A stretch of DNA of 64,000 nt from Minisyncoccota bacterium (GTDB lineage: Bacteria; Patescibacteriota; Minisyncoccia; Phycocordibacterales; PALSA-1337): assembly GCA_041662725.1 (NCBI GenBank), contig JBAZRX010000001.1, positions 85 through 64,084 on the forward strand. Reading direction: 5' to 3'. Positions 8,722-62,349 of this stretch are shown here, piece after piece (position 1 is the first letter of the stretch; every line of letters starts with the position of its first letter). The translations under genes were made by a program, and so were the position numbers. A model generated the notes under the pieces. That model did no database searches, was not told where the DNA came from, and worked only from the letters and a program-made list of their open reading frames with translations.

Positions 8722-8814
8722 TGGCGGAGAGGGCGGGATTCGAACCCGCGAAGCCGTTTAACGGGCTTACCTCGTTAGCAGTGAGGCGCTTTCGACCAGC
8801 TCAGCCACCTCTCC
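8722..8814 (-). tRNA. tRNA-Ser (anticodon GCU), class II with long variable arm, CCA encoded
   Basis: rc reads GGAGAGG-TG-GCT...; anticodon loop CUGCUAA (identical to E. coli tRNA-Ser GCU); T-arm GCGGG-TTCGAAT-CCCGC; acceptor CCTCTCC-G-CCA. Confidence 0.85.
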
Positions 8815-18511: not shown

Positions 18512-18550
18512 TTAAAAGAAAGAGCCTCCGCAAAAAAATTACGGAGGCTC
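18512..18550 (-). terminator. rho-independent terminator after ORF 18557..19267
   Basis: GAGCCTCCG-loop-CGGAGGCTC followed on the minus strand by a U-tract. Confidence 0.6.
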
Positions 18551-18556
18551 AAGTAA

Positions 18557-19267
18557 TCACTGCTTCCAGGCAGCCGACAAGCCGAGGCTGTTATCGTGGC
18601 TGTCATCCCAATAGCTGTCGACGTGTAGGCCCTCATCGAAGCGACCGACGCAGACGTAGCGACCGTCCGAGTCGCAACTGGACGTCCGAACATAAACACC
18701 CTCGAAGAGTCGGACCCCACGAACCTCGAAATAGGTCGTGATGAACCAGCTCATCTCAGCGACGTTCGGCACCTTCTCGAGCGCAGACAGAAGCTTGTTC
18801 TGCTCGCCCCAGGTTTTACTGGTTGAGTTCGAAACAGGCGTCTTCTTGATCAGGAGCCAGCCGAAGGACGTTTTGTCTTCGCGAGCGAACTTCTGGTCGG
18901 AATACCAACCACCCGTCTCCGAGTAGAAGTGGGCGGACTGGATCTCCCGAACATCGAGCGTGGACATCGCCGTGGGTGGCGCAGGCATGACGGCGTAACC
19001 GTTGTCCTTGCACCACTTGAGCACGTCTTCTGACGGCAGACTTTCGGCAAGCGCCATGATCTGTTCGACTGTGTAAACAATGCTCGGGCGAACTTTCGTG
19101 ATTTCCTCGGGTGTAATGAAATCCGCACCGAGGATTGACTGGGCCAGACTGTAATCGGGCGCTTTGGTTGAGAAGCGACGGAACGTTTCGGTAGCTCTCT
19201 GTCCTTTCGGACTGTCTGCGGTTACCAGTGCAGACGTGTTCAATGTTTTCATCGACATCATCTCCAT
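18557..19267 (-). CDS. hypothetical protein in a compositionally foreign (high-GC) gene
   Basis: 236 aa ORF with GC-rich codons (gcg/cgc/gac abundant), unlike the AT-rich flanks. No recognisable motif. Confidence 0.5.
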   Translation of the reverse strand: MEMMSMKTLNTSALVTADSPKGQRATETFRRFSTKAPDYSLAQSILGADFITPEEITKVRPSIVYTVEQIMALAESLPSEDVLKWCKDNGYAVMPAPPTAMSTLDVREIQSAHFYSETGGWYSDQKFAREDKTSFGWLLIKKTPVSNSTSKTWGEQNKLLSALEKVPNVAEMSWFITTYFEVRGVRLFEGVYVRTSSCDSDGRYVCVGRFDEGLHVDSYWDDSHDNSLGLSAAWKQ

Positions 19268-19320
19268 TTGCTGATTTACCGAGAACGCTCGGAACGTCTT
19301 ATCTCATTTAGTAAAATGAC

Positions 19321-20079: not shown

Positions 20080-20230
20080 CTCATAACTCAAAATGCAAAA
20101 CTTAAACACAATAATAGTGCAAAATTCAAAACTCAAAATGCAAAACTTAAACACAGAATTTAATATTAAAAGATCAAGCATTTCAAAAGATGCGATTAAA
20201 CTTTGCACTTTGAGTTTTGCATTTTAAATT
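20080..20230. repeat. UGCAAA-family hairpin repeat, copy C1 (internally duplicated)
   Basis: 'ctcaaaatgcaaaacttaaacaca' occurs twice, followed by inverted 'ctttgcactttgagttttgcatttt'. ~95% identical to the rc of 32519..32625. Confidence 0.8.
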
Positions 20231-20237
20231 AACCACC

Positions 20238-23480: not shown

Positions 23481-23545
23481 AATTCGTTTATTATATGGGA
23501 AAAGTAAGGAATGAAGCAAGAGGAGAGTAGCCCTTAAGGGCTACT

Positions 23546-24334
23546 CTACATTGTCAAAACTTCTGCCCCACTCTTCGTAATCACAATGGTATGTTCAAAA
23601 TGTGCGCTTGGACTGCCATCTGCTGTTCTATACGTCCAACCATCTTTATCAAGTTTAATATTCTTTGTACCAATGTTAAACATCGGTTCAATAGCAATAA
23701 CCATTCCAGGTTTCAAAACTTCTCCTTTACCAGATTCACCGAAATTAGGAACATAGGGATCTTCGTGAACACTGTAACCAACACCATGACCAGCAAGTTC
23801 TTCAACTACTCCATATTTGAAAGGTAAAGCTGTTCTAGAAATAGCATTACCAATATCACCAATCCTCTTCCCTCCTTTAGCGGCTTTTATCCCGGCAAAA
23901 AGTGCCTTCTTTGTAACTTCTATTAATTGTTCTAACTCTAGAGAAATCTTACCAACTGGAACAGTTACTGCGGCGTCAGTAATAAGCCCTTTGTGTGTAA
24001 GACCAAGATCAAGAGAAACGATGTCACCTTCTTTAAGAATCTTATCGGTTTCATTAGGAATACCATGAACAATTTCATCATTTACGGAAACACACAAAGC
24101 CGCTGGGTAAGAACTCTTTGAACCAGCAGGTTTGTAATTAAGAAAAGCTCCTTTATCACCACCTTCAGCAATAAGTTCTAATGCGCGTTTTTCTAATTCA
24201 TAAGAATGAACACCTGGACGGATCATTGAAGATAATTCATTCAAAATAAAAGCGTGTCGTTTACCACCTTCACGGAGAATTTGTATATCTTCTTTTGTTT
24301 TTGTTGTGATCATGTGAGAATTAAACAATTGCAC
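23546..24334 (-). CDS. map: type I methionine aminopeptidase
   Basis: 262 aa; conserved MetAP metal-ligand blocks (D..D..H..E..E). Confidence 0.9.
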   Translation of the reverse strand: MQLFNSHMITTKTKEDIQILREGGKRHAFILNELSSMIRPGVHSYELEKRALELIAEGGDKGAFLNYKPAGSKSSYPAALCVSVNDEIVHGIPNETDKILKEGDIVSLDLGLTHKGLITDAAVTVPVGKISLELEQLIEVTKKALFAGIKAAKGGKRIGDIGNAISRTALPFKYGVVEELAGHGVGYSVHEDPYVPNFGESGKGEVLKPGMVIAIEPMFNIGTKNIKLDKDGWTYRTADGSPSAHFEHTIVITKSGAEVLTM

Positions 24335-24425
24335 AATTTAATAATTAAACAATTGCACAATTTAACAATCCCACAATTGAATAGATACAAGTTGTTTTAA
24401 TTGTCATATTGTAGAATTGTTTAAT
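24319..24425. repeat. ACAATT-family hairpin repeat A1 (arms of tandem 8-bp nnACAATT units; contains a 24-bp internal direct duplication)
   Basis: 'ttaaacaattgcacaattta' x2 ... loop ... 'ttaattgtcatattgtagaattgtttaat'. The right arm encodes the last 7 codons of adk (LNNSTI*). Confidence 0.8.
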
Positions 24426-25024
24426 CTTTCCATAATATCCTTATGAATCTCTTCTACCGACCTTTCTCCAAATATCTTCAAAAAATTATATTTTGGATTA
24501 CCATCATAATAAGAGAGAGTTGGTACAACTTCAGTTTCATACCAAGATAAACGCTCTTTTATATCTTCTTCATTATCATCTATACGCTTTCTAGCTAATA
24601 AACGTTTCAATGCCTCTTCAGAACTAATTTCGATATTCACTAACCATGGTTTTGAAAGATTATAAAAATCAAAAATAGAATTTAGTACACCAGCCTCATG
24701 AAATCTTCTAGGAGTACCATCAAAAATAAGATGTTCATTACCTGTATATTTCTCTGAAAGAACCTTTATCCATAAATATACGGGTAGAAATTCAGGCTGA
24801 AGACCACCTTTATCGTATATCTCTTTTGACTTAATCTGTGTAAAAGTTGGACCATTAATAAATTCTCTTAATTCTTTACCTGTCTCTATATGCAAAATAT
24901 CTCTTGCTGGATCCTTTTCTTTTAAAGCTTTTATTAAAAGCTCCACCTGTGTACCTTTACCACAGCCAGAGCGACCTATAAATATAAATGATTGAGGAAT
25001 CATAAGCTTAAGTTTACAGTGCAA
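24404..25024 (-). CDS. adk: adenylate kinase
   Basis: P-loop 'GRSGCGKGTQ', LID and NMP-binding regions. Confidence 0.9.
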   Translation of the reverse strand: MHCKLKLMIPQSFIFIGRSGCGKGTQVELLIKALKEKDPARDILHIETGKELREFINGPTFTQIKSKEIYDKGGLQPEFLPVYLWIKVLSEKYTGNEHLIFDGTPRRFHEAGVLNSIFDFYNLSKPWLVNIEISSEEALKRLLARKRIDDNEEDIKERLSWYETEVVPTLSYYDGNPKYNFLKIFGERSVEEIHKDIMERLNNSTI

Positions 25025-25082
25025 AAGATAAAATGCAAAGTTCTTTGAATTGAACTCTGCATTTCGCCTTTTGCACTATTTT
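25005..25082. repeat. UGCAAA-family hairpin, copy C3, in the secY–adk spacer
   Basis: 'agtgcaaaagataaaatgcaaagttc ... gaactctgcatttcgccttttgcact' inverted repeat. Confidence 0.6.
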
Positions 25083-30065: not shown

Positions 30066-30206
30066 TTAATTAAACAATTCTACGATATAACAATTAGATA
30101 ATTACACAATTCTACAATATGACAATCAAATAGCTATAAATTGTGTTAATTGTTTAATTGTCATATTGTAGAATTGTCATATTGTTTAATTGTTTAATTT
30201 TTTAAT
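30066..30206. repeat. ACAATT-family hairpin repeat A2 (largest; ~60-bp arms of 8-bp units nnAATTGT)
   Basis: Left 'ttaattaaacaattctacgatataacaattagataattacacaattctacaatatgacaat', loop 'caaatagctata', right 'aaattgtgttaattgtttaattgtcatattgtagaattgtcatattgtttaattgtttaatt'. Confidence 0.85.
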
Positions 30207-30426
30207 TTTTTTCTGCTAATTTAACTTTTGAAGCACTAAACGGCATTTCTCTAACAACTGTCTGACCTTTTTGTCCTTGCTTCCTAGCACGTTCATGCTT
30301 TTTCACTGTATTCATGCCCTCAATAACAATCTTATTACTACGTGGAAAAGCCCTAACAACCTTGCCGGTTTTACCCTTATCGTCTCCAGATAATATTATG
30401 ACTGTATCTCCTTTTTTGATATGCAT
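30202..30426 (-). CDS. rplX: 50S ribosomal protein L24
   Basis: 'MHIKKGDTVIILSGDDKGKTGKVVRAF...' KOW motif. Confidence 0.85.
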   Translation of the reverse strand: MHIKKGDTVIILSGDDKGKTGKVVRAFPRSNKIVIEGMNTVKKHERARKQGQKGQTVVREMPFSASKVKLAEKN

Positions 30427-30435
30427 GATGGTTTA

Positions 30436-30478
30436 TTTAACAATTCTACAATATAACAATTAAACAATTACAATTAAA
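30436..30478. repeat. ACAATT-family single-arm tandem array A3
   Basis: 'aacaattctacaatataacaattaaacaattacaatt'. Confidence 0.7.
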
Positions 30479-31350: not shown

Positions 31351-31404
31351 TATTCGTAGATTTGTATATTTGTAGCTCATTCGCATAATTCGTAAATTCG
31401 TAGT
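31351..31404. promoter_or_regulatory. ACGAAT-family motif B1 upstream of rpmC
   Basis: 'tattcgtagatttgtatatttgtagctcattcgcataattcgtaaattcgtagttt' shares the ~40-nt core with 44700..44746 and 52450..52488. Confidence 0.6.
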
Positions 31405-32535: not shown

Positions 32536-32625
32536 AAGTCAAAATGCAAAGTTTAATCGCATTATTTGAAATGCTTGATCTTTTAATATTAAATTTTGTG
32601 TTTAAGTTTTGCATTTTGAGTTATG
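32519..32625. repeat. UGCAAA-family hairpin repeat, copy C2 (reverse complement of C1)
   Basis: rc is 'cataactcaaaatgcaaaacttaaacacaaaatttaatattaaaagatcaagcatttcaaataatgcgattaaactttgcattttgacttttgcatttt', ~95% identical to 20128..20228. Confidence 0.85.
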
Positions 32626-32627
32626 AA

Positions 32628-32975: not shown

Positions 32976-33326
32976 TTATTTCTTTGGTGCGGCGGCAGTA
33001 GTAGCGGCTTCTTTTGCTGATTTAGCGGCAGTCATCTCAGCTTCCTTGGCCTTCAACTCTATCTCCTTCTGCATCTTACCTCCATGTCTTATAAATTTCT
33101 TTGTAGACGAAAATTCACCGAGGCGGTGTCCAACCATGTCCTCGGTTACCAAAACATCTATATGTATCCTTCCGTTATGTACTCCAAAAGTAAAACCCAC
33201 CATTTCTGGTGAAATTTGTGAGCGACGTGCCCATGTTTTTATAGAAGCTGTTGTAGCAGGCTTTTTGCCAGAAATCTTCTTCAAAAGATTTTCATCAACA
33301 TATGGGCCTTTCTTAAGCGATCTTGA
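32976..33326 (-). CDS. rpsS: 30S ribosomal protein S19 with A/K-rich C-terminal extension
   Basis: Core '[19 protein letters not shown]...[18 protein letters not shown]' plus tail '[25 protein letters not shown]'. Listed ORF starts 72 nt upstream. Confidence 0.9.
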
Positions 33327-33473
33327 CATAAAGTTATAGTATAAAAAATGCTCTAAAGAGCGTTCCTGCATGTTAACAGAGCGGCCTATTGAAGTCAAGA
33401 AACCGTGCAGGACTCTTTGTTGTTTTAGAAATCTTATCTATGTTTACTACAATATAGCTTTTTATTGTTTATA

Positions 33474-34325
33474 CTACACATTAACCTTTTTTTCAGTATT
33501 TACAAACATAGAAATCAGAGAGATAAGGAGGTAGATATACCAAGGAATATTAACACCAAAAATAATACCTAGAACAACGTCAATTATAATCGCTAACGTT
33601 ATAGCATATAAGCCTAATTTGAATGCCTGTCTATAAGTTACATCTATCTTACGTACCTTGTTTATTATCCAAAATATGAATGATCCAATCGTAATTGTTA
33701 ATAAATTCACAATAGTGTAAATAAAGAATAGGCCAGCGAAAAAGCCAACAATAATAAATGGAATCACTAATTTTATATATGGCTGTATCTTTGATATCTC
33801 TTCACCAAACTTAACTTTGTCTAATACCATATTAGGTACTGACTTCAAACTTTGAACAGATAGTTTCCCTTTATTGTTGTCTGGATAGACTAGATAATCT
33901 CTTGTAAGAAACGCAAACGTCTTATTATCATCAAATAATTCAGGTGTTAAAGAAGACTTCGTATCTATAACCAAGATATTTTCTGGAATTATTTCTTCCT
34001 CAGTTTTATTACTGAATTTATTAGACAATACTTCAGGAAGAGGAATATAGTATGGTTCTTGAACATTTGTTGATACCTGACCGTCCTGGAAAGTAATCTT
34101 TAATTCTTGTGGAAATGCATTAGTTAATATATCAAATGTTTCCTGAGAAAACACATTACTAATTATTGGAATAACTTGAAAGCATGCAACAATAGCTGTT
34201 ATTATCGTTACAAGTAGAATAAGTTTAAAAAAGTATTTAAATGCTTTTCCGAGACTAGTACTTTTCTGTTCAACATAGAAAGCTGGATTATAAACACTAT
34301 CTTTAATTGTTTTGAATATTGTCAT
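33474..34325 (-). CDS. hypothetical integral membrane protein (DUF1189-like?)
   Basis: 283 aa, N-terminal and C-terminal TM clusters around a soluble middle. Confidence 0.45.
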   Translation of the reverse strand: MTIFKTIKDSVYNPAFYVEQKSTSLGKAFKYFFKLILLVTIITAIVACFQVIPIISNVFSQETFDILTNAFPQELKITFQDGQVSTNVQEPYYIPLPEVLSNKFSNKTEEEIIPENILVIDTKSSLTPELFDDNKTFAFLTRDYLVYPDNNKGKLSVQSLKSVPNMVLDKVKFGEEISKIQPYIKLVIPFIIVGFFAGLFFIYTIVNLLTITIGSFIFWIINKVRKIDVTYRQAFKLGLYAITLAIIIDVVLGIIFGVNIPWYIYLLISLISMFVNTEKKVNV

Positions 34326-34424
34326 AAAAATGATTTATTTAAATAAAACCGACTGATTCGATTAAGACTAATTGTAAAACAAATTGATAATTTTAGCTAA
34401 TGATTGAATCATTACTTATGCGTT

Positions 34425-34729
34425 TAGAGCTTGGTAAATATGTTCTTTCATAACACTTGGTTGTAATTCAAATAATTGCACAATATGACAATTTAACAAT
34501 TAAGCTTGTTTCTAGCAAAACCCCACCACACTCATGTTCTAGAGCATTTCGCAGGCGTCGGGGAAATGTAATCCGCATACCTACGACACGACGCCGAGAA
34601 TAGACGGCCTTGCGAGTCTTTCGTTATTCGAGCAAGGCCGATCGTGCTCTAGAACATGAGTGTGGTGGGGTTTTGCTTAGAGATGGCGATCTTGCGAGTG
34701 TTATGAAAGAACATATTTACCAAGCTCTA
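34425..34729. repeat. 305-bp nested palindromic element (MITE-like or structured regulatory RNA/DNA)
   Basis: Outer perfect 33-bp IR (34425..34457 vs 34697..34729). Inner perfect 32-bp IR (34515..34546 vs 34645..34676). GC-rich core with further short IRs (ggccttgc/gcaaggcc). Contains an ACAATT-family arm at 34462..34505. Confidence 0.85.
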
Positions 34730-34740
34730 TACACGGTATT

Positions 34741-35577
34741 ATGATATTATTAGTTCATATGTTTTATGAACTATTTATTAATGGGTCACCTATTCTTAAT
34801 GGTAATGTTGTTGTCGTATTTACACTTATTTTCTCATTCTTAGCAATAATCTTAGCTCTTATTACCTATACTATTAGAAAGATAAAAGAAAATGAATCAC
34901 AAAAATATGAATTCATTACTATTATCGCTCACAAATTTCGCACACCGTTAACTTCAATAAAATGGCTTGCTTTGTCATTAATACAAAAAGAAACAGACCC
35001 TTATAAAAAACAAGACTTAGAAGATATCAACAAGTCCAATCAAAAACTCATAGATCTTACTGGAACTTTGATAGAATTGACCGAAAACGCTAATTCAAGC
35101 AAAGCTTCATATGTTTTTGAACGATTATCCTTATGTTCCCTAGTGCGTGATGTCTCCGATACATTTAAAGACTCTTTCCATAAGAAAAATATATTCTTTT
35201 CCGTCAGCTGTTCGGAGGAAATTTTTGTTAAAGCTGATAGACCAAGATTGGAATTTGTAATTCAAACTATTTTAGAAAATGCGCGCAATTATACATCTCC
35301 AGGCAAGAATGTTGATGTTTTTGTGTCTCGCTTACATCGCAGAGCTATTATCACTGTAGTAGATCATGGTATAGGCATAGACCAAAAAGATATTTCAAAG
35401 ATTTTTTCAAAATTCTATAGAACTCAAAATGCAAAATCTTTTGATACCGAAGGATTCGGTGTAGGTTTATACCTGGCAAAATCAATTATAAGACATCACC
35501 GAGGTAAAATAGAGATATTTTCTGAAGGAATAGATAAAGGCTCAACTTTCTCAATTGTCTTACCTAAAGTAAAATAA
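34741..35577 (+). CDS. sensor histidine kinase (orphan; no adjacent response regulator)
   Basis: 278 aa. One N-terminal TM, H-box 'IAHKFRTPLTSIKW', N/G1/G2 boxes 'ILENARNYT', 'DHGIGID', 'GFGVGLYLAKSII'. Confidence 0.8.
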   Translation: MILLVHMFYELFINGSPILNGNVVVVFTLIFSFLAIILALITYTIRKIKENESQKYEFITIIAHKFRTPLTSIKWLALSLIQKETDPYKKQDLEDINKSNQKLIDLTGTLIELTENANSSKASYVFERLSLCSLVRDVSDTFKDSFHKKNIFFSVSCSEEIFVKADRPRLEFVIQTILENARNYTSPGKNVDVFVSRLHRRAIITVVDHGIGIDQKDISKIFSKFYRTQNAKSFDTEGFGVGLYLAKSIIRHHRGKIEIFSEGIDKGSTFSIVLPKVK

Positions 35578-35700: not shown

Positions 35701-36555
35701 TTATACACTACTTCTCATATTCTTTCCTGGCTGGCGTCTGGAAACAACATAAACATTTGAATATTTCTTTGATCGACGTGTTCTCTGACCCTTTCCTGCC
35801 GGTTTACCCCACATGGTCTTCAAACGACGCAAACCACGACCTTGTCTTTGTTCACCACCACCATATGGGTGATCTACGGGGTTCATGGCTGAACCACGTA
35901 CTGTTGGGCGAATACCCATCCAACGTGAACGACCGGCTTTACCTATGTTCACAAGACGAGACTCTTCGTTAGAAACCGCACCGATAGATGCCCAAGAATC
36001 TTCATGAATCTTTCTAACTTCTGTTGATGGCATCTTAATGTGTGTATATCCAGCATCGTTAGCAACTACTTGAGCAAAAGAACCAGCAGAACGAACTAAC
36101 TTTGCACCACTTTTTGGCTTAACTTCAATATTATAAATAAATGTACCGACTGGAATCTTCTTTAAAGGTAAACGATTACCTATTTCAATAGGGGCATTTT
36201 CCGAAACGATAAATGAATTACCAACTTTCATTGTCTTTGGTAAAAGAACATAACGTTTTGCACCATCTTTATAATTTACAATACCGATATAACCAGTACG
36301 AAAAGGATCATACTCAACAGTTTTAACAGTCGCAATAATATCTTTCTTATCATACATAAAATCAATCTCTCTATAGAGTTTCTTGTGTCCTCCACCATGA
36401 TGGCGAGTAGTAATGCGTCCAGCAGAATTGCGTCCCACATCACGTTTCATTCCATGAGTAAGAGACTTGTTTGGTTCTGACACAGTCAAATATTCTTTGA
36501 ACGGTAAAACCGTCATATGTCTCCTTGATTTACTTGTTGGATTAAATGATTTCAT
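35701..36555 (-). CDS. rplB: 50S ribosomal protein L2
   Basis: 284 aa L2 consensus including 'HHGGGHKKLYR' region and C-terminal 'GGGEQRQGRG'. Confidence 0.95.
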   Translation of the reverse strand: MKSFNPTSKSRRHMTVLPFKEYLTVSEPNKSLTHGMKRDVGRNSAGRITTRHHGGGHKKLYREIDFMYDKKDIIATVKTVEYDPFRTGYIGIVNYKDGAKRYVLLPKTMKVGNSFIVSENAPIEIGNRLPLKKIPVGTFIYNIEVKPKSGAKLVRSAGSFAQVVANDAGYTHIKMPSTEVRKIHEDSWASIGAVSNEESRLVNIGKAGRSRWMGIRPTVRGSAMNPVDHPYGGGEQRQGRGLRRLKTMWGKPAGKGQRTRRSKKYSNVYVVSRRQPGKNMRSSV

Positions 36556-38309: not shown

Positions 38310-39551
38310 TTATTCATAACGAAGCGCTTCTATTGGACTTTTCTTTGAAGCTTGTCTAGCAGGATAACCACCAAATATAAGACCTATAAGAGCCGATACA
38401 GAAAGACCTAGAATTGCACCGTCCCAAGGAAAAACAAATGTCCAATTAACACCTAAACCTTTAGACAAAACTATAGCGGCTATAAGAGCTAGAGAAGCTC
38501 CTAAAATAATACCTATAATTCCACCTATAGCTGTAAGCATAACCGCTTCAAGAAGAAATTGGGTTAGAATATCTCTATCAGTAGCACCTAAGGCTTTGCG
38601 TAAACCTATCTCACGTGTACGCTCTGTTACAGCCACAAGCATAATATTCATAATACCTACACCGCCTACAAACAAAGCAATTGAAGCTACGGCCACAAGA
38701 AACCAAGTTAAAGCAGATGTAATAGTTCCAAGTCTATTAGCCAGATCTTCTTGAGTTTGAACATAAAAATCATCTTTAGAAGAATCGGTAATACCATGAG
38801 ATTCCCTAAGAGTCCTACGAACATCTTCAGCTGTAGACTGAACTTGGTTATCAGTTTTCGCCTGGATAATAAAATGATGATAATACTTAATACCAAGCAT
38901 GTAATTATTTGCTGTTGTGTAAGGAACAACCACTGCCTCATCAAAATTAAATAATGAACCACCACCACCCTTCTCTAAGACTCCTACAATTTTAAGATTA
39001 CGATTCTTTAATTTTATCTTCTGTCCTATTGGATTTTCACCATCAATAAATAAATGCTCAACTACTTTTGCACCTATAACTGCCACATCCGCACGAGAAG
39101 AGACGTCATCTAGAGCAAAGAAATCTCCTTCAGCTATTTTCGCATCGAATATATCAGCAAGAAGCTCCGTACCTCCAAAAATAGATACTTGATAAACTTC
39201 AGATTTATATGAGGCTGAATCAGCACCAGCAACAAGAGGCATAAGTACTTTCAGATCTGGAACATTAGTTAATTTCATGAGCTCTCTTATGTCTTTATCT
39301 TTAAGAGAATCACTAAACATCTGAGCAGAATCAGATGGTCCAGTAGGTTCTCTCCCAGGAGTAACTATTATTGTGTTTGTTCCTAATCCCTGTACTTGCC
39401 CAAGGATAAGCTCTTGTGCACCAGCTCCAATTGAAACAACCATCATAATAGCTGTGATACCGATCACAATGCCTAGAATCGTCAAAAATGATCTTGATCT
39501 ATTCGTAGTAAGTCCGGTTAATGCTGTTTTTATTGAGTGTTTCCAAGTCAT
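38310..39551 (-). CDS. ABC transporter permease (MacB/FtsX family)
   Basis: N-terminal TM, large extracytoplasmic domain, C-terminal FtsX 4-TM bundle. Listed ORF extends to 39620 and overlaps the ATPase gene; start placed at the internal 'MTWKHSIKTAL'. Confidence 0.8.
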   Translation of the reverse strand: MTWKHSIKTALTGLTTNRSRSFLTILGIVIGITAIMMVVSIGAGAQELILGQVQGLGTNTIIVTPGREPTGPSDSAQMFSDSLKDKDIRELMKLTNVPDLKVLMPLVAGADSASYKSEVYQVSIFGGTELLADIFDAKIAEGDFFALDDVSSRADVAVIGAKVVEHLFIDGENPIGQKIKLKNRNLKIVGVLEKGGGGSLFNFDEAVVVPYTTANNYMLGIKYYHHFIIQAKTDNQVQSTAEDVRRTLRESHGITDSSKDDFYVQTQEDLANRLGTITSALTWFLVAVASIALFVGGVGIMNIMLVAVTERTREIGLRKALGATDRDILTQFLLEAVMLTAIGGIIGIILGASLALIAAIVLSKGLGVNWTFVFPWDGAILGLSVSALIGLIFGGYPARQASKKSPIEALRYE

Positions 39552-39567
39552 AAAATAACAATTTGCC

Positions 39568-40284
39568 TTATTTAACAAATTCATCACTAGCTGTAAGTCT
39601 TTTTTTAACTTTCGTATCACTTTCTATCTCCCCATCCATGAGTCTAATAATACGCTCCGCATGTTCTGCAGTAGAAGTCTCATGAGTTATAAGGACGATG
39701 GTTTTTCCATGTTCTTCATTCAAATGCTGTATGATAGCCATAACATTTTTCCCTGACTTAGAATCAAGATTACCAGTAGGTTCATCAGCAAAGATTACTT
39801 CAGGGTCAGTAACTAATGCCCTAGCGATAGCTACACGTTGTTTCTCTCCACCAGAAAGTTCTGACGGTTGGTGGTACATCCTATGCTCCAAACCAACAGA
39901 TATAACTGCTTTGCGAGCTCTCTCTTCCCATTCATTTTCAGAAACTTTTGAGTAATACAGCGGTAATTTCACATTTTCAAGTACAGATGTGCGTGGTAAA
40001 AGATTAAACATTTGGAAAACAAAACCAATTTCACGGTTACGTAAATCGGCTAATTCATCACTAGTATATGTTGATACATTTTTTCCATTAAAAGTATAAC
40101 GCCCGCCAGTTGGAGTGTCTAAAAGACCAAGTAAATGCAGTAATGTTGATTTACCACTACCAGAAGGGCCCATAATAGCCAAAAACTCACCTTTACGGAC
40201 GGAAAAAGATACTTTATTTAAAGCAATAGTATCTATACCATCATCGTATGACTTTTTTAGGTTGTTTACATCTATTATGTTCAT
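39568..40284 (-). CDS. ABC transporter ATP-binding protein (MacB/LolD-type)
   Basis: Walker A 'GPSGSGKST', signature 'LSGGEKQRVAIARAL', Walker B 'IFADEPTGNLD'. Confidence 0.9.
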   Translation of the reverse strand: MNIIDVNNLKKSYDDGIDTIALNKVSFSVRKGEFLAIMGPSGSGKSTLLHLLGLLDTPTGGRYTFNGKNVSTYTSDELADLRNREIGFVFQMFNLLPRTSVLENVKLPLYYSKVSENEWEERARKAVISVGLEHRMYHQPSELSGGEKQRVAIARALVTDPEVIFADEPTGNLDSKSGKNVMAIIQHLNEEHGKTIVLITHETSTAEHAERIIRLMDGEIESDTKVKKRLTASDEFVK

Positions 40285-40289
40285 GAAAA

Positions 40290-40378
40290 TTTAACAATTA
40301 CACAATTAGACAATTTAACAATTGAGACGCCGTGCTTTAATTGTTCAATTGTGTAATTGTTAAATTGTAGAATTACTA
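40290..40378. repeat. ACAATT-family hairpin repeat A5
   Basis: 'aacaattacacaattagacaatttaacaattg' – loop 'agacgccgtgcttt' – 'aattgttcaattgtgtaattgttaaattg'. Confidence 0.8.
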
Positions 40379-41902
40379 TTTTACATACGTCACAATCTTA
40401 TCCCCTGCTCTCAATCCTGAAATAATTTCAACCATACCATCTGAACCTTTAAGACCAACTTCTACAGGTATTGATACAAAACTTTTACCATCAGATCCAA
40501 GAAGACGCACATTTTTTGTTCCAGAAACATCAATAATAGTTCTTGTAGGAACAGTAATCACGTTACTGCGTTCACGAGTCAGTATATCTAAGTTAGCGGT
40601 CATGCCAGAACGAATACGCTCATCTTTCTGTAAAAAATGTAAAGTAACTTTATAAGTAGGTACGCCTTCCAATATTGTTTCAGCCGGGTCCATAGTAACT
40701 GCTACTGCCGGAAAATCCACATTCTGACCATAAGCATCCAAAGTAGTAGAAGCATAATTACCAATAACAATCTTAGCAATATCAGCTTCTGGAACATAAG
40801 CTTCTATTTTATATACATCATCACTTTGAACTCCATACACAATCTTACCTGCCTGAACAAATTCACCCACACTAGGATCTGCACGAGTAATAATGCCGCT
40901 AATAGGAGAAACTATTCTATCTTTTTCATATTCTGCTTTATATGCTGCTACCAGAGCGGCTTGTGCCGCAATAGTTTGAGCAGATGACCCCGTCTTTCTT
41001 AAAATAAAATTGCTATCAGCTTGTTCATACGCTGACAAAGCATTTTCCAAACCAGTTTTCGCACTAGTAATTGAAGCTATAGCTTGATTCGTTAATGTAA
41101 GGCCTGAGTTTATTGATGAAACATAAGTATCAATAGTAGCCTGAGTTAAACCAGAATTACCTAGATTTAGATTATTAACAATAGTAGAAAGGCTACTCAT
41201 AAAATCTCTCACCACATTTACATACATATCTGCTTTTGAAATAAGAATATTTATATTATCTGTTGATGTTACAGCATCAATATCTGCTTTCCACTTAACT
41301 AAAGTTTCAGCTACTGAAATACGTGACATGTTAATTGTATTTTTTTCAGTTTGAGACTGAGTACGTACTTTTATTTCAGGGTTAGCACTTTGAGGACTAT
41401 CAAATAATGAATCGGCATAGTTTGTAATAGCACTTTGTGCCTGTACATAAGCCGTTCTAGAAGCATCAAAAGCTTCTTGTTTAGCATTCGCAAGAGAAAC
41501 TTTAGCTGTATTAACCTTTGATTGTTCCACTGCAAGTTCTTGTGAATTCAGATTGCGAGATAAATCATCCAACTTAGCTTGTGCTGAAGCAAGATTAGCA
41601 GCATCACCAGAACTGTTAAGCCCAGCAATCAGCGAACCTTTTTCTATTTTATCCCCAACTTTGACATTAATAGTTTTAATAATTCCACCTTTTTCAAAAG
41701 CCAAATCCGCCTTACCAACTGGAGATATTTTACCAGTAACACTAACTTTTTCTGTAATATTACCAACAGTAGCTACAGCGAATTCTATATTAACAGCAGG
41801 ATTTCTATTATAAAAAATAAATACTAGTACAATCGCAAGTATTACTACAAAAATAAAAACATATTTGTTTTTAATATAATGCTTAAAAAAAGATCTTTTC
41901 AT
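40376..41902 (-). CDS. efflux periplasmic adaptor (HlyD/MacA-like) protein
   Basis: N-terminal TM, long coiled-coil region, beta-barrel/lipoyl-like C-terminus. Listed ORF extends to 41962 across a GC-rich palindrome; start placed at 'MKRSFFKHY'. Confidence 0.65.
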   Translation of the reverse strand: MKRSFFKHYIKNKYVFIFVVILAIVLVFIFYNRNPAVNIEFAVATVGNITEKVSVTGKISPVGKADLAFEKGGIIKTINVKVGDKIEKGSLIAGLNSSGDAANLASAQAKLDDLSRNLNSQELAVEQSKVNTAKVSLANAKQEAFDASRTAYVQAQSAITNYADSLFDSPQSANPEIKVRTQSQTEKNTINMSRISVAETLVKWKADIDAVTSTDNINILISKADMYVNVVRDFMSSLSTIVNNLNLGNSGLTQATIDTYVSSINSGLTLTNQAIASITSAKTGLENALSAYEQADSNFILRKTGSSAQTIAAQAALVAAYKAEYEKDRIVSPISGIITRADPSVGEFVQAGKIVYGVQSDDVYKIEAYVPEADIAKIVIGNYASTTLDAYGQNVDFPAVAVTMDPAETILEGVPTYKVTLHFLQKDERIRSGMTANLDILTRERSNVITVPTRTIIDVSGTKNVRLLGSDGKSFVSIPVEVGLKGSDGMVEIISGLRAGDKIVTYVK

Positions 41903-41918
41903 AAACAAATACATTGTA

Positions 41919-41952
41919 CCACGAGGCCTCGCCTCGAGGCGAGGCCTCGTGG
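41919..41952. promoter_or_regulatory. perfect 34-bp GC-rich palindrome upstream of the efflux operon
   Basis: 'ccacgaggcctcgcctcgaggcgaggcctcgtgg' is its own reverse complement; stark GC contrast with the surroundings. Confidence 0.7.
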
Positions 41953-42035
41953 AAATCGCCATAAAAAGTCTTAAGCAAACAAATATCCGTAGATTTTCTT
42001 AAGTAAAGCAGACAAAAACAAACTAGATATTAAGA

Positions 42036-42066
42036 AGCACGAAAAATCCCCTGCAGGGGATTTTTC
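42036..42066 (-). terminator. rho-independent (bidirectional) terminator after rplC
   Basis: 'aaaaatcccctgcaggggattttt'. Confidence 0.65.
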
Positions 42067-43182: not shown

Positions 43183-43269
43183 ATTCAACAATTTAACAAT
43201 TCCACAATTTAACAATCAAAACACCGTGTTCTAATTGTTAAATTGTCATATTGTTGAATTGTTAAATTA
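43183..43269. repeat. ACAATT-family hairpin repeat A6 (tuf–rpsJ spacer)
   Basis: 'caacaatttaacaattccacaatttaacaat' – loop 'caaaacaccgtgttc' – 'taattgttaaattgtcatattgttgaattgttaaatt'. Confidence 0.8.
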
Positions 43270-44635: not shown

Positions 44636-44746
44636 AAAATTCGCAAATTTTTTTCTACGAATCTACGAATATGCGAATGAAACACAGCATCTGCGATTAT
44701 TCGTAGATTCGTAGCCCATTCGCATAATTCGTAGATTCGTAGTTTA
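44636..44746. promoter_or_regulatory. ACGAAT-family hairpin B2 (upstream of tuf, immediately downstream of the giant gene)
   Basis: Left arm 'ctacgaatctacgaatatgcgaatg', right arm 'cattcgcataattcgtagattcgtag'; 8-bp ctACGAAT units. Confidence 0.75.
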
Positions 44747-47700
44747 CTTAGCAAAATATTCTCCTAAAGAATCCCAAACTGAAGCTCTTCCACTAGTACT
44801 ATTATTTACAGAAGTTGGTGCTGAATTAGGGGTTGGTGTAGGAGTTGGTGTAGGTTTTATTAAATTATAATATTCTGCTGTATTCATCAGAACGCCTTTT
44901 ATATAACTAATATCATAACCAGAATTTACCCAGTAATCTAAACCAGCTTGATCTGGATTACGTTTAAGTAAAGTTACGTACAACTGAGTTATATCATTAA
45001 TTCTTGCTTGTTTTGGAGAAATTGTTGATGTTGGGGTTGGGGTTAAAGTTGGTGTAGGTGTTGGTGAATAATACGGTTTTGTTGTTGGTGAAGGAGAAGG
45101 AGTAATTACTGAAGATTGTGCCTTCACAGTTGTTGTTTGACTTGAAACTATTGATGAAACAGGAATAACCGCAACAGCCTGTGAACCATCGGTGAATTTA
45201 ACTATAAGTTTACCGCCATACCATGTTGTTATTGACTCTTTTTGACCATAGAGCATATAGACTTGAGAACTATATGATGCTTGACCAAGAGGCAAAACGT
45301 CATAATACTTATCATTAAATTGAGTACTTGAGCCCTGTATAACAATAACAAGTGGATATGGCTTTCTACCATAAGAATCAAGTTCGGCACTTGTTGACCA
45401 CGCTTCACCATTATTATCACTCAAAACAGTTATTGATTTTATACTTTTTCCACCAGCACTATTGATTTTCATTTCCATACGCCATCCCCAATCAGATGGA
45501 TCTTTACTTATATACCCACGTCCAGAACTAAATTGATCCCAAGCACCAGCACGATCTTCATTGGCGCTATACACAACAGCTTTAATAGTGCCATCAAATG
45601 TAGGGTAATTCGATGACGGTGTTTGTGTAGGGGTAGGATTTAAAGAAACAGCAGAAGTTTTAATTGTAGACTGTGTTACTTTTGCATATGTTGGTGGAAG
45701 ACTAAGCTTCTCTTCGTCTGATGCTATAACTGTTTTACCATCTTTTACTGAAAGAAGTTCGGCCTTAGCAACAACAGTTTGGACAACACTGGTATTATTT
45801 TTAAATATCACATCAATAAAACCGTCAGGAGCAACTTTATTTTTTACACCACAAGCAAGACCGCCGTTTACATTAGTTGGAGCTGAAGCGACAACACCTG
45901 TAGGACAGACGATTGAAAGAATCCAATCAAACTCATCAACTTGACTGTTTGTAGAATAACGTACACGAATACCTTCATTAGTTCCGATTATTTTTGAAGA
46001 AAGAGTAAAAACAGAAGAAGAAACTGGGGCTGTAATAGAAGATTGTGCCGAATTAGAAACTTTAACTTTTATAGTATTACTTTTTATAGCTTCATTTTTA
46101 GCATTTAAGGACATTAAATATAAATTGTAATCACCATCAACAATAGAAGTAGTTGGCTCATTCCACCAACCATCTGGATGCACGCCACGACCTATTGTGC
46201 TAGGAATTGTAAAACTGAGTTTAGAACCATCGTATAGTGAATATCCTGTTAATGTACGAACATCATGAGAATACCCCACTGACCATGTTTTTGAGCCATC
46301 AACTGTTGTAAGAATAATATTTCCTGTTCTACCAGCACCTGTTGCATAAATTGTTAATAAAGATCCTACTGAAACAGGCTGAGGTGCAACTCGGCTTATT
46401 TCTGGTTGTACTCCACTTACTGGAGGAATAATACTAAAAAAATCATTACTATCATCACAAATATCTGTTCCTGCTTTACATACCCTTGCCTTATATTGAC
46501 CAACAGAAATTTGACTAGGATACGTAGAAAATCCGAGTGACTGTGCATTTTTATTTGATGGTTTTAAATTTAACTGGATAGGACTTGGTATAACTTGACC
46601 AGATGAATTTAGTAACTTTACATCAACTGATTGGGTAGGATCTATGGAATCCCATATAACACTCAATGATTCGCCCTGTGCTATTTTTTCTCCTCCATTA
46701 GGTGAAACAATAACAACACTACCCCTATTAGGAGCTGGAACGTCAACTTTAGCCTTAACCGCTTTTGCATTACATGATGCATTTATTTTTTTTAAAGTAA
46801 AAGGTCCAGCAACGCCAGTTGAAGGAACTCCGATTGATGTTTGAAATGCTTTTACTGCGGCTTTGGTATCAGAACCAAAATATCCCTTCAGAGCATTACC
46901 TAAAGAAATACTCGGAATATCAAAACCGTTATTGATCAACCATGTTTGCAAAGCTACGACTTCTGATCCAGAACTACCTACAGAAAGGCCAGAGTTTTCT
47001 AAAGCAAAGATAGCTGAGAAGTTGTAACACAAACTTATTCCTGAAGAAGCTTTGAATTTAGAGTTAGTTGAATCAACTGAACTATCCGCCACAGTACACA
47101 CATATCCGGTAGGACATCCTTCAGGTTGAACAGCTAGAGGTGTACAAACATAACCTTCAGGACATGAAAAAGGAAGTGTACAAATATATCCAACAGGACA
47201 TAAAACAGAAGATTGCTCTAGTGCATCCCCTACAGCGGCAACAAGTCTTGTATCTCTTGGTACAAGACTAACTGGACTAGAACTCGGCATTGGTGTTGGA
47301 GAAGATGAAGATGTTGGAGAAGTTGAAGGAGTCGGTGTAGGAGATGGAGTTGAAGAAGGTGTAGGAGATGGAGTTGGAGTAATAATCGGTGTTGGGGTAG
47401 GAGTAGAAGCTGGAGATGGCGTTGGTGTTGAAGAAGGAGCTACTGAAGGAGTCGGCGAAGAATAATAACTTGAAGTTGGAGATGGTGAAGGTGTATATGT
47501 TGGTGAGTAAGTAGATGTTGGGGAAGGAGTATATGTTGGGGAATAAGAAGAAGTTGGTATAGGAGTAGAAGTTGGTCTAGGTGTATATGTTGGTGAGTAA
47601 GTAGAAGTCGGAACAGGAGTTGCTGAAGATACTGGTCTAGGAGTAGCTGAGTAAGCAGGAATTGGAGTTGTTGCTGGAACATAAGCAGGACTTGGAGAGA

Positions 47701-49063
47701 TAGAACGCATACACCTATCACCTATCTTAGTGTAACCAGGAGGACAAGATGCTGGTGAAGGTGAAGCTGCTGGTGCTGATGAATACGTAGGAGCAGAAGA
47801 AACCGCTGGAGTAGCTTGTGGTGTACTAACTGGTAACGTTGTTGGTGAAGAGCCTGTAATTAACGAAGTGGCAAATCTTAAAGCGCTTGAGTATGTATTA
47901 CGTATTCTTCCGAAGAAACCAGTTGATGCTGCTGGAGTTGGGGCTGGGGTGGAAACTACTGGACGATTCAATGTAGTAAAAACACCTTCTCTTGTTAACA
48001 CACCAGACCAAGTATAGAAATTATCTAAACCAGTAGTTTGATTAGTAACAGTTTTTCCCCCTACAGTGTAATCAATATCCTTAACTGCCATAAGCAAGTT
48101 AAGGGAAGGATTGTTTGGAGTGAAAGGAAGTGCTTGGTTTGATGATACCTGACCATTCAAAACAACTGTATATGTACCACCATCCCCGATAGTTGCATCA
48201 GACGGAGTCACATATATATTCATAATACTTGCTGTGTATGCATTCTGTTTGTTCCCTGCTGTCGATGTTACATAGGCACCATTTGTCTGTGTTGATGATG
48301 CAAATACAAGAGTGAAGTCTTTAAGGGTAGGTTTAACCATCACTCCTCCAACTGCTTTAGCTTTAAGAGTAATAGTTCCGAATAGAGAGCTTGAGGCTAC
48401 ATCTTTTACACCTGGTGCTGAAAAAATATCAGCACTTACGAATGACCAGTCGACGCGAGGATATGTTGTATTTGACAAAGTACTATTACAAAGACCATTT
48501 CTAGGATAATCAAGACTTAATTCCTTTGTATTTGTCTTAAAATCCATTAAATCTCTAATTTCAACTCTAGCCACCCTTCCACCAACGTTAAAAGTAATAT
48601 CTCTAATTGCCATAAAGAGATTTTGGGCTGAACAAATATCAGGATTATTAGACATAACAGCACCGTAAATTGTTACTGTGTATTCTTCTCCATCATTAAT
48701 CGTAGGTTTATTTGGTGTAACAACAATAGATCTGATGACCCCAGAATAGATAGAATTTGAAGAATCAATACGTTTAAAAGGTTTGTATATTTCCGTACTG
48801 GAAGCAAAAATTAAACTAAAATCGCTAGCCTTTGGCTTAACTATCGTTCCTCCAACCGCTTTAACTTTAAGAGTAATAGTTCCGGTTAGAGAGCTTGAAG
48901 CTACATCTTTTACACCTGGTGTTGAAGCAATATCGGAACTTACGAAGGACCAAGAGGCACGAGGAGAGGTAGCCTGCGCCTCAACTTTCGTTATTTCACC
49001 AGAGAAAACCGCAAACGATAATACTGTTAGCGAAATAAAGAAAGAAAATAATATTTTTTTCAT
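44744..49063 (-). CDS. giant secreted multidomain protein (PT-rich linkers, PG_binding_1-like and DUF4214-like domains)
   Basis: 1439 aa. Signal peptide. Tandem duplicated ~55-aa module ([36 protein letters not shown] / [37 protein letters not shown]). '[12 protein letters not shown]' repeats. Three 'CPxGYxCT' repeats. '[16 protein letters not shown]...[14 protein letters not shown]...GVAGPFT' peptidoglycan-binding-like. C-terminal '[22 protein letters not shown]' DUF4214-like. Confidence 0.8.
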
Positions 49064-52380: not shown

Positions 52381-52488
52381 AACGAATCTACAAATTATGC
52401 GAATGACTACAAATCTACAAATATTTGCAAACATTATGTTTCATTTGCATATTCGTAGCCCATTCGCATAATTCGTTAATTCGTAGTT
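52381..52488. promoter_or_regulatory. ACGAAT-family hairpin B3 upstream of rpsL (likely str-operon promoter region)
   Basis: 'acgaatctacaaattatgcgaatg' ... 'cattcgcataattcgttaattcgtag'. Core 'attcgtagcccattcgcataattcgt' identical to B2. Confidence 0.75.
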
Positions 52489-55823: not shown

Positions 55824-56435
55824 ATGAAAACATTTGAGACTAAAACATATAAAATACCAGTTCTAAAAGGCCTTTCACAAAAAAGTATAGACGAACACTT
55901 GAAGCTTTATGCTGGTTATGTGAAAAATTCAAATCTCGTTTTAGAAAAAATAGAAGAATTGAAAAAAGAACCAGAGAAAAATGCATATGCCTTAAGCGAA
56001 ATTAGCCGTAGATTCGGCTTCGAATATAACGGCATGCGTAATCATGAAATTTACTTCGCTTCACTTGAGGGTGGTGCAAATGCAATAAAAGAAAAAAGTC
56101 CTCTCTATCAGGCTATTACTGAAAACTGGGGTTCATTTGAAGCTTGGCTAAGTGAGTTTAAAGCTATTGCCATGACTAGAGGTATTGGCTGGGCAATGCT
56201 TTATTATGATTACAAAAACTCACGACTACTTAATGCGTGGGTTGATGAGCATCATATTGGTCAACTAAATGGCTGTGAACTGATTCTTGGACTAGATATG
56301 TGGGAACATTCCTTTGTCTTAGACTACTTACCTTCAGGAAAGAAAAATTATATTGAAGATTTCTTTGTAAATCTCAATTGGCGCGTAGTAGAAGAGAATT
56401 TTCTGGTAAAAAACAATATCGCAAATAATATATAA
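55824..56435 (+). CDS. Fe/Mn-family superoxide dismutase (divergent)
   Basis: 203 aa. C-terminal 'DMWEHSFVLDY...NLNWRVVEENF' matches the D-x-W-E-H-[STA]-[FY] signature; N-terminal 'LPVLKGL...EH...YV.N.N' helix-hairpin. 3' end overlaps the comEC 3' end by ~88 nt (convergent). Confidence 0.65.
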   Translation: MKTFETKTYKIPVLKGLSQKSIDEHLKLYAGYVKNSNLVLEKIEELKKEPEKNAYALSEISRRFGFEYNGMRNHEIYFASLEGGANAIKEKSPLYQAITENWGSFEAWLSEFKAIAMTRGIGWAMLYYDYKNSRLLNAWVDEHHIGQLNGCELILGLDMWEHSFVLDYLPSGKKNYIEDFFVNLNWRVVEENFLVKNNIANNI

Positions 56436-57742
56436 AAACCAACTACCCACCAACCAGAAAAAACTGGTATATTAACAGCCGCAAAAGGCAATTGCGCAAA
56501 TTTTTGTACCATAAATAACTCATATGAAAGTAAAAAATGTGTAATCCAACCAAAAACTTGAGCAAAAGGTAAATAAACCATACCAATTAATCCTGTAATA
56601 AAAACAAAAAACATCGTAACAGGAATAAAAGGTAAAACTAAAATATTTACAACTACTCCAATAATAGAAAGCTGGCCCATTGTATATAAAATATATGGCG
56701 AAACAAATATTTGTGTAGCAATCGTTGCCGCCACTATGCCACGAATACCAAATTTTTCTGGAATAAATATTAAATATTTTTCTACAGGTGAAGCCAGAAC
56801 AATCAAACCTAAAGTAGCTAAAAACGATAATTGAAATGATGGATCATAAAAAAGAATCATTGGATTTTGAATAAGCATAATGAGGCCAGCAAAAATCAAT
56901 GCACGAGTAACGTTGTAATCCCGACGAATCAAATCTGCCGAAAGAGCCACGCCAGCCATAAAACAAGAACGAATCACTGTGGCTCCACCACCAACCATTA
57001 TTCCAAATGCGGCTATACCTAGGCCTCCTATAGCTATTCCCCAAATACGTGGCAGAAACAATAAAATCCTTCTCATAGCATCACCAACAATAGTGATGTT
57101 ATAACCAGAAAGTACTACAATATGAATTAGTCCTACTGTACGAAAATCATTCAGTAAATCTTTACCTAAAGCAGCTTTCTCTCCCACCACAAGTCCTGAA
57201 GCTAAAGCCGCATGTGGTTCACCTAAAGTTTTTTCTAAACTATTTACAAATTTTCTTTTAAGAAAATACAACCAATAATTAATATTTGATTTCTGTCCAC
57301 CAGCTGATAAATTGGGATCTAAAATTCCAACTGTCGCACTTTTCATTTCAAAATAAATATCATTTTTAGCTAAATACCCTTTATAATTGAAAGATCTACC
57401 ATCACTACTATCAAAATTAATTGGTTGTAATAATTTTCCAGTAAACGAAATGCGATCATTAAAAATAAACTTCGGATAAAGTTTTGTCTTCATACGAATA
57501 AGAAAGTTTGCACCACATGATTTAGAAGTGCTTGCAATACTCAAAGATTCAACCGAAACAACCAGAACCTGTCCTGTTTCTTTGCGTTCTGGTTCAGAAT
57601 TAACAACACCAATACCATTTACAACTTGTTTTACACAAGAATCAACAGATGGTGGCTCTATATCAAAAGATTGCCATACACGAAATACAGCCGCCGCAAT
57701 AAAAATACTCCAAAAGATAAAAATCCCTCGCTTCATGAGCAA
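56348..57742 (-). CDS. ComEC/Rec2 DNA-uptake channel protein (DUF4131 + Competence domain only; MBL domain absent)
   Basis: 464 aa. 'LGEPHAALASGLVVGEKAALGKDLLNDFRTVGLIHIVVLSGYNITIV' Competence-domain consensus; polytopic. Confidence 0.7.
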   Translation of the reverse strand: MLMKRGIFIFWSIFIAAAVFRVWQSFDIEPPSVDSCVKQVVNGIGVVNSEPERKETGQVLVVSVESLSIASTSKSCGANFLIRMKTKLYPKFIFNDRISFTGKLLQPINFDSSDGRSFNYKGYLAKNDIYFEMKSATVGILDPNLSAGGQKSNINYWLYFLKRKFVNSLEKTLGEPHAALASGLVVGEKAALGKDLLNDFRTVGLIHIVVLSGYNITIVGDAMRRILLFLPRIWGIAIGGLGIAAFGIMVGGGATVIRSCFMAGVALSADLIRRDYNVTRALIFAGLIMLIQNPMILFYDPSFQLSFLATLGLIVLASPVEKYLIFIPEKFGIRGIVAATIATQIFVSPYILYTMGQLSIIGVVVNILVLPFIPVTMFFVFITGLIGMVYLPFAQVFGWITHFLLSYELFMVQKFAQLPFAAVNIPVFSGWWVVGFYILFAILFFTRKFSSTTRQLRFTKKSSI

Positions 57743-60797: not shown

Positions 60798-60884
60798 GTG
60801 TAAGATAAGGAATCCAGAGTTAAAAAACGCAGGGATTACTTGGTTGTAATTATATCAGAATTTATGAGGGGGGGGAAAAAATAG

Positions 60885-61000
60885 AGGGTGGGGATAACTA
60901 CTCTGGCTTAGGCTCTTATTGATTATTATTAGATATACCTAATACTACCCAATACTACCCAATTATACAAATGAGTCTTCTTCTACCCATGGGGATAACT
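60885..61000. repeat. direct repeats in the upstream region of the 57801..60797 gene
   Basis: 'ggggataactactc' at 60885..60898 and 60987..61000; tandem 'aatactaccc' x2 at ~60940..60962. Confidence 0.6.
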
Positions 61001-62321: not shown

Positions 62322-62349
62322 ATAGCGTAATTATAGCATTAGTGGAATA

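Follow-up and report, generated by a model that had tools for sequence, protein, structure and literature searches.

Gene setting of the element and of the kinase promoter

The window analyzed here, a 64,000-nucleotide stretch from a Minisyncoccota bacterium, carries the genes of the S10/spc ribosomal operon on its minus strand. Judging by the names given to homologues, this uncultured, ultrasmall organism is a Paceibacteria-type member of the Patescibacteria; its metagenome-assembled genome encodes the proteins MFA6294833.1 and MFA6294834.1. In a gap of the S10 operon, between rplB (35701–36555, −) and rpsS (about 32976–33329, −), lies a 305-bp element of nested inverted repeats (34425–34729). 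It is flanked by a DUF1189 membrane-protein gene (33474–34325, −), which is lineage-specific at this position, and by the gene of an orphan histidine kinase with HisKA and HATPase_c domains (34759–35577, +), i.e., the setting given in a preliminary description of this DNA was confirmed. For the kinase, alignment with homologues agreed on a start at 34759, not 34741. The start codon is located inside a perfect 9-bp AT-rich hairpin (34751–34773, TAGTTCATA-tgttt-TATGAACTA).

We compared kinase promoters in an alignment of the regions upstream of five kinase genes. An extended −10 motif (TGnTATAAT) is common to the relatives, 14–29 nt before the ATG, and CGGTATTAT at 34734–34742 (+) aligned with it as the putative −10 region in the window. 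As the element stops 7 nt upstream of this conserved −10 box, it is not a normal kinase leader, nor is it part of the canonical kinase transcript. The extended −10 motif has lost its TG here, and the outer right arm of the element supplies TTTACC (34716–34721) at the −35 position. We infer that the element rebuilt the kinase promoter in this way, with the TG gone and a new −35-like hexamer in place.

A promoter-like TTGACT-17-TAACAT site with a GC hairpin was found directly upstream of rpsS and is conserved in three lineages, i.e., in the window (33371–33403, −) and in the relatives L002 (3739–3795) and L004 (4171–4225). Therefore, the genes from S19 onward seem to own a promoter. Given this site, the open reading frame call of 32976–33398 with a TTG start is too long.

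Anatomy of the 305-bp element

A repeat finder located two pairs of inverted repeats. The outer arms pair without any mismatch over 33 nt (34425–34457 and its exact reverse complement 34697–34729, 30% GC), and over 36 nt with a single mismatch (34422–34457 and 34697–34732). The inner arms (34514–34546, 48% GC, and its exact reverse complement 34645–34677) are 100% complementary over 33 nt, not over 32 nt as first described. The outer arms are 239 nt apart and the inner arms 98 nt. All 66 stem pairs are Watson–Crick pairs on both strands, with no wobble and no bulge. The term perfect nested palindrome, used in the preliminary description, is thus correct for both arm pairs but not for the whole unit, which has unequal spacers of 56 nt on the left (34458–34513, 25% GC) and 19 nt on the right (34678–34696, 53% GC) and an asymmetric core of 98 nt (34547–34644). 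The core was described correctly as GC-rich and as containing short inverted repeats: it has 55% GC versus 22–24% in the flanks, and its predicted fold is a three-way junction of hairpin A (34554–34595; perfect 7-bp stem 34554–34560/34589–34595) and hairpin B (34605–34640; perfect 9-bp stem 34605–34613/34632–34640).

The boundaries of both repeat pairs are sharp. Neither beyond the ends of either pair nor between outer and inner arms did we find similarity above that of shuffled sequences. Within the 64-kb window, no arm sequence recurs beyond its own two sites, and the number of matches to the arms expected by chance was zero (100 dinucleotide shuffles). The two arm pairs are the longest exact repeats of any kind within the window, and the longest perfect spaced inverted repeats in the 112 kb of Paceibacteria DNA examined.

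Base composition splits the unit into an AT-rich outer and a GC-rich inner module. The outer arms and the left spacer resemble host intergenic DNA in composition. The left spacer carries a half-copy of an ACAATT-unit repeat (34476–34503), of which 34480–34502 is an exact 23-mer of 43232–43254 in reverse complement. The inner arms, the core and the right spacer, grouped with them by composition, form a 183-nt block of 48–55% GC (34514–34696). This block contains no open reading frame, with stops in all six frames, as in the core itself. If the outer element is taken as 34427–34727, it has TA on both sides (34425–34426 and 34728–34729); as TA is self-complementary, this may be 2 bp of the repeat. 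At the inner module, no target-site duplication was found (flanks TTTCT and TAGAG).

Stable folding, which the preliminary description had proposed to check, was borne out. The folding energy of the 305-bp unit was −169 kcal/mol on the plus strand (z = −21) and −162 kcal/mol on the minus strand (z = −19), i.e., the plus-strand fold was better by 6.6 kcal/mol, and −104 kcal/mol was obtained for single-stranded DNA. Folded alone, the core showed modest structure (z = −2.6 and −1.9). The base of the inner stem has the form A4C4...G4T4 and is followed by a U-rich run on both strands; with the right arm ending in G4T4GCT (GCU in the RNA), it resembles the native bidirectional terminator GAAAAATCCCC...GGGGATTTTTC at 42041–42066. 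The loop of an intrinsic terminator normally has 3–8 nt. A terminator scan called no terminator in the element, which has the stem and a U-rich tail on both strands but an interior of 98 nt.

Comparison with syntenic relatives

The kinase gene is divergent from rpsS in all four syntenic relatives (L002, L004, L025 and L028) and all five Paceibacteria loci that we examined have it at this site. Ahead of the kinase, the non-coding stretch measures 251 nt in L002, 102 nt in L004, 63 nt in L025 and 157 nt in L028, and a long inverted repeat is present there in none of the four. In the window the stretch has 433 nt; without the 305 bp it would have a normal length of 128 nt. Because the relatives lack the palindrome and a stretch of this size is left after its removal, the palindrome is, as judged from this comparison, an insertion specific to this lineage.

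The slot between rpsS and the kinase is empty in L002 and L028, holds a 140-aa open reading frame in L004, an MFS transporter in L025 and the DUF1189 gene in the window. A DUF1189 homologue in L005 is placed elsewhere in the operon, between S3 and L16. This slot, from the rpsS promoter to the divergent kinase, is a hot-spot for lineage-specific membrane-protein genes.

L002 is the closest relative, with a kinase of 74% identity, and apparently stems from the same sample. At 3790–3955 of L002, two direct copies of the kinase promoter region GAAACCTTGATTATGGTATAATACT flank a scaffold gap of 10 N together with 105 nt, which suggests that the corresponding site has an unresolved insertion or duplication.

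Palindromic families and GC-rich islands in the window

At least three families of multi-copy intergenic palindromes occur in the window. The ACAATT-unit arrays (24309–24436, 30068–30211, 30435–30470, 40283–40373 and 43183–43268, in addition to the half-copy in the element) are AT-rich palindromes of 8-nt units (NNACAATT ... loop ... AATTGTNN). They occupy junctions between genes of the ribosomal and ABC-transporter operons; in L002 and L004, these junctions measure 9–37 nt and are free of such arrays. The ribosomal L24–L5 junction has 141 nt in the window versus 16–29 nt in the relatives, and the array copy at this place seems to have deprived L24 of its C-terminal tail. For L14–L24, the junction has 47 nt here versus 9 nt in L002 and 37 nt in L004, which has a repeat array of its own.

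Members of the second family, AAAATGCAAA (core CTCAAAATGCAAAAC...GTTTTGCATTTTGAG), were found at 20081–20231, 32536–32627 and 25018–25077. Its two long copies are about 95% identical, and one has a 45-nt internal tandem duplication. The family fills the gap after infC and the S3–L22 junction, which has 92 nt here versus 1–5 nt in the relatives. The third family, AATTATGCGAATG/CATTCGCATAATT, is partly palindromic and occurs at the L16–L29 junction (31378–31390), upstream of a 1439-aa open reading frame at 44744–49063 (44707–44732), and near 52.4 kb (52382–52484). These other families are AT-rich and imperfect (75–95%). This streamlined CPR genome carries many lineage-specific palindromic insertions, even within ribosomal-protein operons, among which the 305-bp element is the largest and the only perfect one. 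Outside the window, L004 has its own array of GATTTAA units at an intergenic site (1372–1408) and L008 has ACTTTATA/AAGTTATA units forming intergenic palindromes (3928–4234). Lineage-specific unit arrays may be a general feature of Paceibacteria.

Perfect GC-rich palindromes of the terminator type were located at 41919–41952 (34 bp), 42041–42066 (26 bp) and 23524–23547 (24 bp). The 34-bp palindrome CCACGAGGCCTCGCCTCGAGGCGAGGCCTCGTGG lies at the called 5′ end of a 528-aa open reading frame (40376–41962), the counterpart of the RND-like gene of L004. The 26-bp palindrome, which is bidirectional-terminator-like, is found downstream of rplC and 90 nt from the 34-bp one. More broadly, an ABC-transporter/FtsX/RND-like gene set is located between rplC and rplD of the S10 operon in both the window (38310–41962) and L004 (7792–11274), where the set in the window was assigned by synteny and size with L004.

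The window has 36% GC, and its strongest GC peaks include a tRNA (8725–8814, one of two) and the tmRNA; the element ranks alongside them. A GC-rich island at 18515–19275 (up to 64% GC) coincides with a 236-aa open reading frame (18557–19267, −), for which we found no Pfam match and no credible Rfam match. This is probably a horizontally acquired gene.

Two further observations concern regions remote from the element. A 1661-aa alpha-2-macroglobulin-like protein (1019–6004, −) has Hint/pretoxin-HINT matches at residues of about 810–937, between its bait-region and A2M domains; the Hint region could be an intein-like insertion. Three consecutive open reading frames of 998, 440 and 370 aa without Pfam match (57801–63462, −) adjoin a ComEC-type competence gene (56348–57742).

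Searches for copies, homologues and partner genes

The preliminary description had suggested a search for further copies of the unit. None of the arms or the core has a second copy within the 64-kb window, where the left spacer alone matches elsewhere. Exact words of the inner arms gave no match or chance matches, i.e., of word length and in unrelated DNA, in the genome, metagenome and viral collections; the lineage is apparently absent from genome_contigs. Exact words of the outer arms in the metagenome and viral collections, as well as three core or arm words in the viral collection, matched at chance level only. The chance matches had exactly word length and sat in unrelated GC-rich genes. 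With blastn, no match was obtained against phages and plasmids. As a control we used an 18-mer of the multi-copy ACAATT repeat of the window. In genome_contigs, it found no Paceibacteria and only chance matches in unrelated phyla. Since this repeat too found no Paceibacteria, the lineage appears to be absent from genome_contigs and the negative homologue searches weigh little. The flanking genes are on record in one genome.

Rfam covariance models did not match the element on either strand, neither at the gathering threshold nor at E ≤ 10; the families covered include 6S, SRP and Y RNA, ribozymes, riboswitches and omega/HEARO RNAs. ARAGORN found no tRNA or tmRNA in the element. Among the 40 open reading frames scanned across the window, none had a transposase, recombinase or reverse transcriptase domain. 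Several known element types were rejected. A retron would have its RVT domain, which is missing in the window, where the neighbours are the kinase and DUF1189 genes. For an integron attC site, a lox/FRT-type site, a tRNA-like element, a coding fragment or a telomere-like repeat, the defining partner gene or motif is missing. No match to an adapter or vector was recognized.

Interpretation of the element

We tentatively read the element as a composite, non-autonomous and non-coding foldback insertion of the MITE/REP-like class that colonized this Paceibacteria genome. It would have an AT-rich shell of about 141 bp without cargo, with the 33-bp terminal inverted repeats, the possible TA flanks and the ACAATT half-copy, and nested in this shell a GC-rich hairpin module of 164 bp, in which further 33-bp inverted repeats enclose a forked core. 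The element may have arrived by transposition or by replication template-switching. There would be no dedicated function, and any consequences would be side effects. Transcripts crossing the element in either direction would form perfect 33-bp duplexes, and the inner hairpin might pose a two-way transcription barrier between the kinase and the DUF1189–rpsS unit.

This reading accounts for the extra 305 bp compared with four syntenic relatives that have no long inverted repeats, for the sharp edges of both repeat pairs and for the unrelated sequences of the two arm pairs. It also fits the composition of the modules, where outer arms and left spacer have 25–30% GC versus 52–53% in the inner element and right spacer, the host-specific ACAATT repeat inside the shell, and the inner stem base with its likeness to the terminator at 42041–42066. 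The 305 bp hold no open reading frame and no Rfam family, and at least three multi-copy palindromic families widen tight operon junctions in the same genome. These other families are AT-rich and imperfect, however, whereas the arms described here are perfect and, like the core, single-copy in 64 kb. Related sequences were found neither in the genome and metagenome nor in the viral, phage and plasmid collections, with the lineage seemingly absent from genome_contigs. The TA flanks are indistinguishable from a 2-bp extension of the repeat, the inner module lacks a target duplication, and no transposase, recombinase or reverse transcriptase is encoded in the 40 open reading frames. Two independent nested insertions at one site would moreover be unparsimonious, and a terminator-like role is purely inferred, as the interior has 98 nt compared with the usual 3–8-nt loop. 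For the MITE proposed in the preliminary description, the sharp terminal repeats, the possible TA flanks, the non-coding character, the absence from relatives and a genome full of other palindromic insertions speak in favour, whereas neither a second copy nor a transposase was found in the window, nor an unambiguous target duplication at the element. Among the three candidates proposed there, a MITE-like element is the sole leading survivor and still an unproven candidate.

It is somewhat unlikely that the palindrome arose in situ and is immobile and neutral, i.e., by template-switching or quasi-palindrome correction around the native GC-rich terminator-type and ACAATT hairpins. Such an origin would need two events for two sharp-edged and unrelated 33-bp inverted duplications, and neither microhomology nor a donor copy was identified. 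On the other hand, the genome is unusually rich in palindromes, including perfect GC-rich ones of 34, 26 and 24 bp, and the single-copy element has native motifs in its interior. The arms are free of mismatches and of G–U-type decay, which fits recent or continuing homogenization at the DNA level.

We consider it unlikely that the GC-rich module (34514–34696) is the gene of a structured non-coding RNA, i.e., of a stable RNA or sRNA, the long stems serving for processing by RNase III or as a giant terminator. The rank of the element among the GC peaks next to the tRNA at 8725–8814 and the tmRNA points in this direction, but the GC-rich islands of this DNA also include a probable foreign protein gene. 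The core with its three-way junction, the plus-strand fold favoured by 6.6 kcal/mol and the U-rich run after the stem would suit an RNA, but by itself the core has only modest structure (z = −2.6 and −1.9), and 66 stem pairs that are all Watson–Crick, with no wobble or bulge, are atypical for selection at the RNA level. The possible promoter upstream (34447–34476) matches in 9 of 12 positions, in DNA where such matches are common. Rfam was negative even at E ≤ 10, and the syntenic site lacks the module in four relatives.

We regard it as quite unlikely that the element is a DNA inversion switch (inverton), possibly a two-layered one, in which a recombinase encoded elsewhere flips the outer segment, the inner segment or both. 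A flip would then redirect an internal promoter from the kinase to the DUF1189–rpsS side. The repeats are perfect, sharp-edged and of typical length, and they surround an asymmetric segment in a divergent promoter region. One hybrid promoter-like site combines TTCATA from the arm with AATAAT from the left spacer; it points towards the kinase in the assembled orientation and would point towards DUF1189 once the outer segment is inverted, but its match is weak (9 of 12). Moreover, none of the 40 open reading frames of the window encodes a recombinase, and the GC-rich, internally hairpinned core is left unexplained. A precedent for an invertible switch upstream of a signal-transduction operon is the cmr switch of Clostridioides difficile. 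A literature search on inverted repeats or invertons in Patescibacteria found nothing relevant. The stronger claim of a two-layer inversion switch formed by the nested repeats, and with it of the first inverton to be described from Patescibacteria, is distinctly improbable. In that case, the hybrid promoter, whose −35 lies in the arm and whose −10 lies in the left spacer, would be moved by the outer flip from the kinase side to the DUF1189/rpsS side, an inner-core flip would change the terminator-like barrier, and an ultrasmall epibiont would gain a phase-variable choice between sensor kinase and membrane protein.

An assembly artefact, in full or as part of the perfection of the arms, is very unlikely. 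Collapsing of bulges in an assembly graph can make near-identical repeats look identical. The source contig comes from a JGI assembly, and the exact arm length of 33 bp in both pairs is an uncomfortable coincidence with the smallest k-mer that the JGI workflow uses in metaSPAdes (33, 55, 77, 99, 127; doi 10.1101/2020.09.30.320929). However, a de Bruijn graph cannot invent a shared 33-mer, as both contexts must occur in the reads. In addition, Logan contig L001 (k = 31, run SRR18595301) matches the window without a difference and has its end at 34454. Its final 31-mer directly precedes the first one that both outer arms share, so that the contig stops one base short of it. If both contexts are in the reads, a de Bruijn graph has to branch at exactly this place. 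An independent assembly at k = 31 thus supports the outer repeat, while the inner repeat is known from one assembly. No further independent contigs were on record when the kinase, L2 and two small internal open reading frames were looked up by exact match. The flanks show the same synteny as in the relatives, and the unique asymmetric core and unequal spacers are unlike the products of fold-back chimeras.

A structured 5′ leader of the kinase mRNA, proposed in the preliminary description and requiring a promoter left of 34425, is most improbable: a promoter-like site exists at 34384–34412 and the whole unit folds as a very stable hairpin directly ahead of the kinase, but the extended −10 of the relatives aligns to 34734–34742, i.e., 3′ of the palindrome, and their upstream regions are short (63–251 nt) and without comparable structure. 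The large cruciform-forming regulatory element also proposed there is unlikely given loops of 98 and 239 nt, with which extrusion from duplex DNA is very unfavourable.

By itself, the element is an orphan structural oddity in one metagenome-assembled genome. If it is a MITE, it points to transposition in genomes that otherwise show no sign of such activity; if it proved to be an inversion switch or a novel RNA, the phylum would have its first regulatory element of this type.

Comparison with known systems

Invertons such as fimS, the promoter switches of Bacteroides or cmr, flg and cwpV of C. difficile can have their recombinase encoded far away. Like them, the element has perfect inverted repeats in the range of 10–40 bp that bracket an asymmetric segment of 100–300 bp next to a promoter. 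Unlike them, it has two nested repeat pairs and a GC-rich, hairpinned interior, in a window without recombinase.

As with RNase III processing stems, long stretches of complementary sequence flank a structured, GC-rich core, and the genome is AT-rich. An example of this type is found in L008, where a 24-nt inverted repeat surrounds an RNA gene, probably 5S rRNA, upstream of DUF1189. In contrast to such stems, those of the element have no mismatch or wobble, the core belongs to no known RNA family, and the relatives lack it. The order of A-run, GC-rich perfect stem and T-run on both strands is that of native bidirectional terminators, e.g., at 42041–42066. The stem of the element is 33 bp long, however, with a structured interior of 98 nt, and lies between divergent and not convergent genes.

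Like REP/BIME/REPIN and ERIC sequences, the element is palindromic, intergenic and hairpin-forming and resides inside an operon. Unlike these, its arms and GC-rich core match no multi-copy family in the window, where no RAYT-type transposase was seen either. Correia elements (CREE/NEMIS) of Neisseria and similar MITEs occur in tens to hundreds of copies with a recognizable consensus. Our element has one copy in 64 kb, no consensus and perfect arms, and it differs from them also by its nested second hairpin module of different base composition. As Correia elements do, it combines a non-coding length of about 100–300 bp with terminal inverted repeats of about 26–33 bp and possible TA flanks, lies in an intergenic, promoter-proximal position, can contribute promoter hexamers, and would form long hairpins in transcripts.
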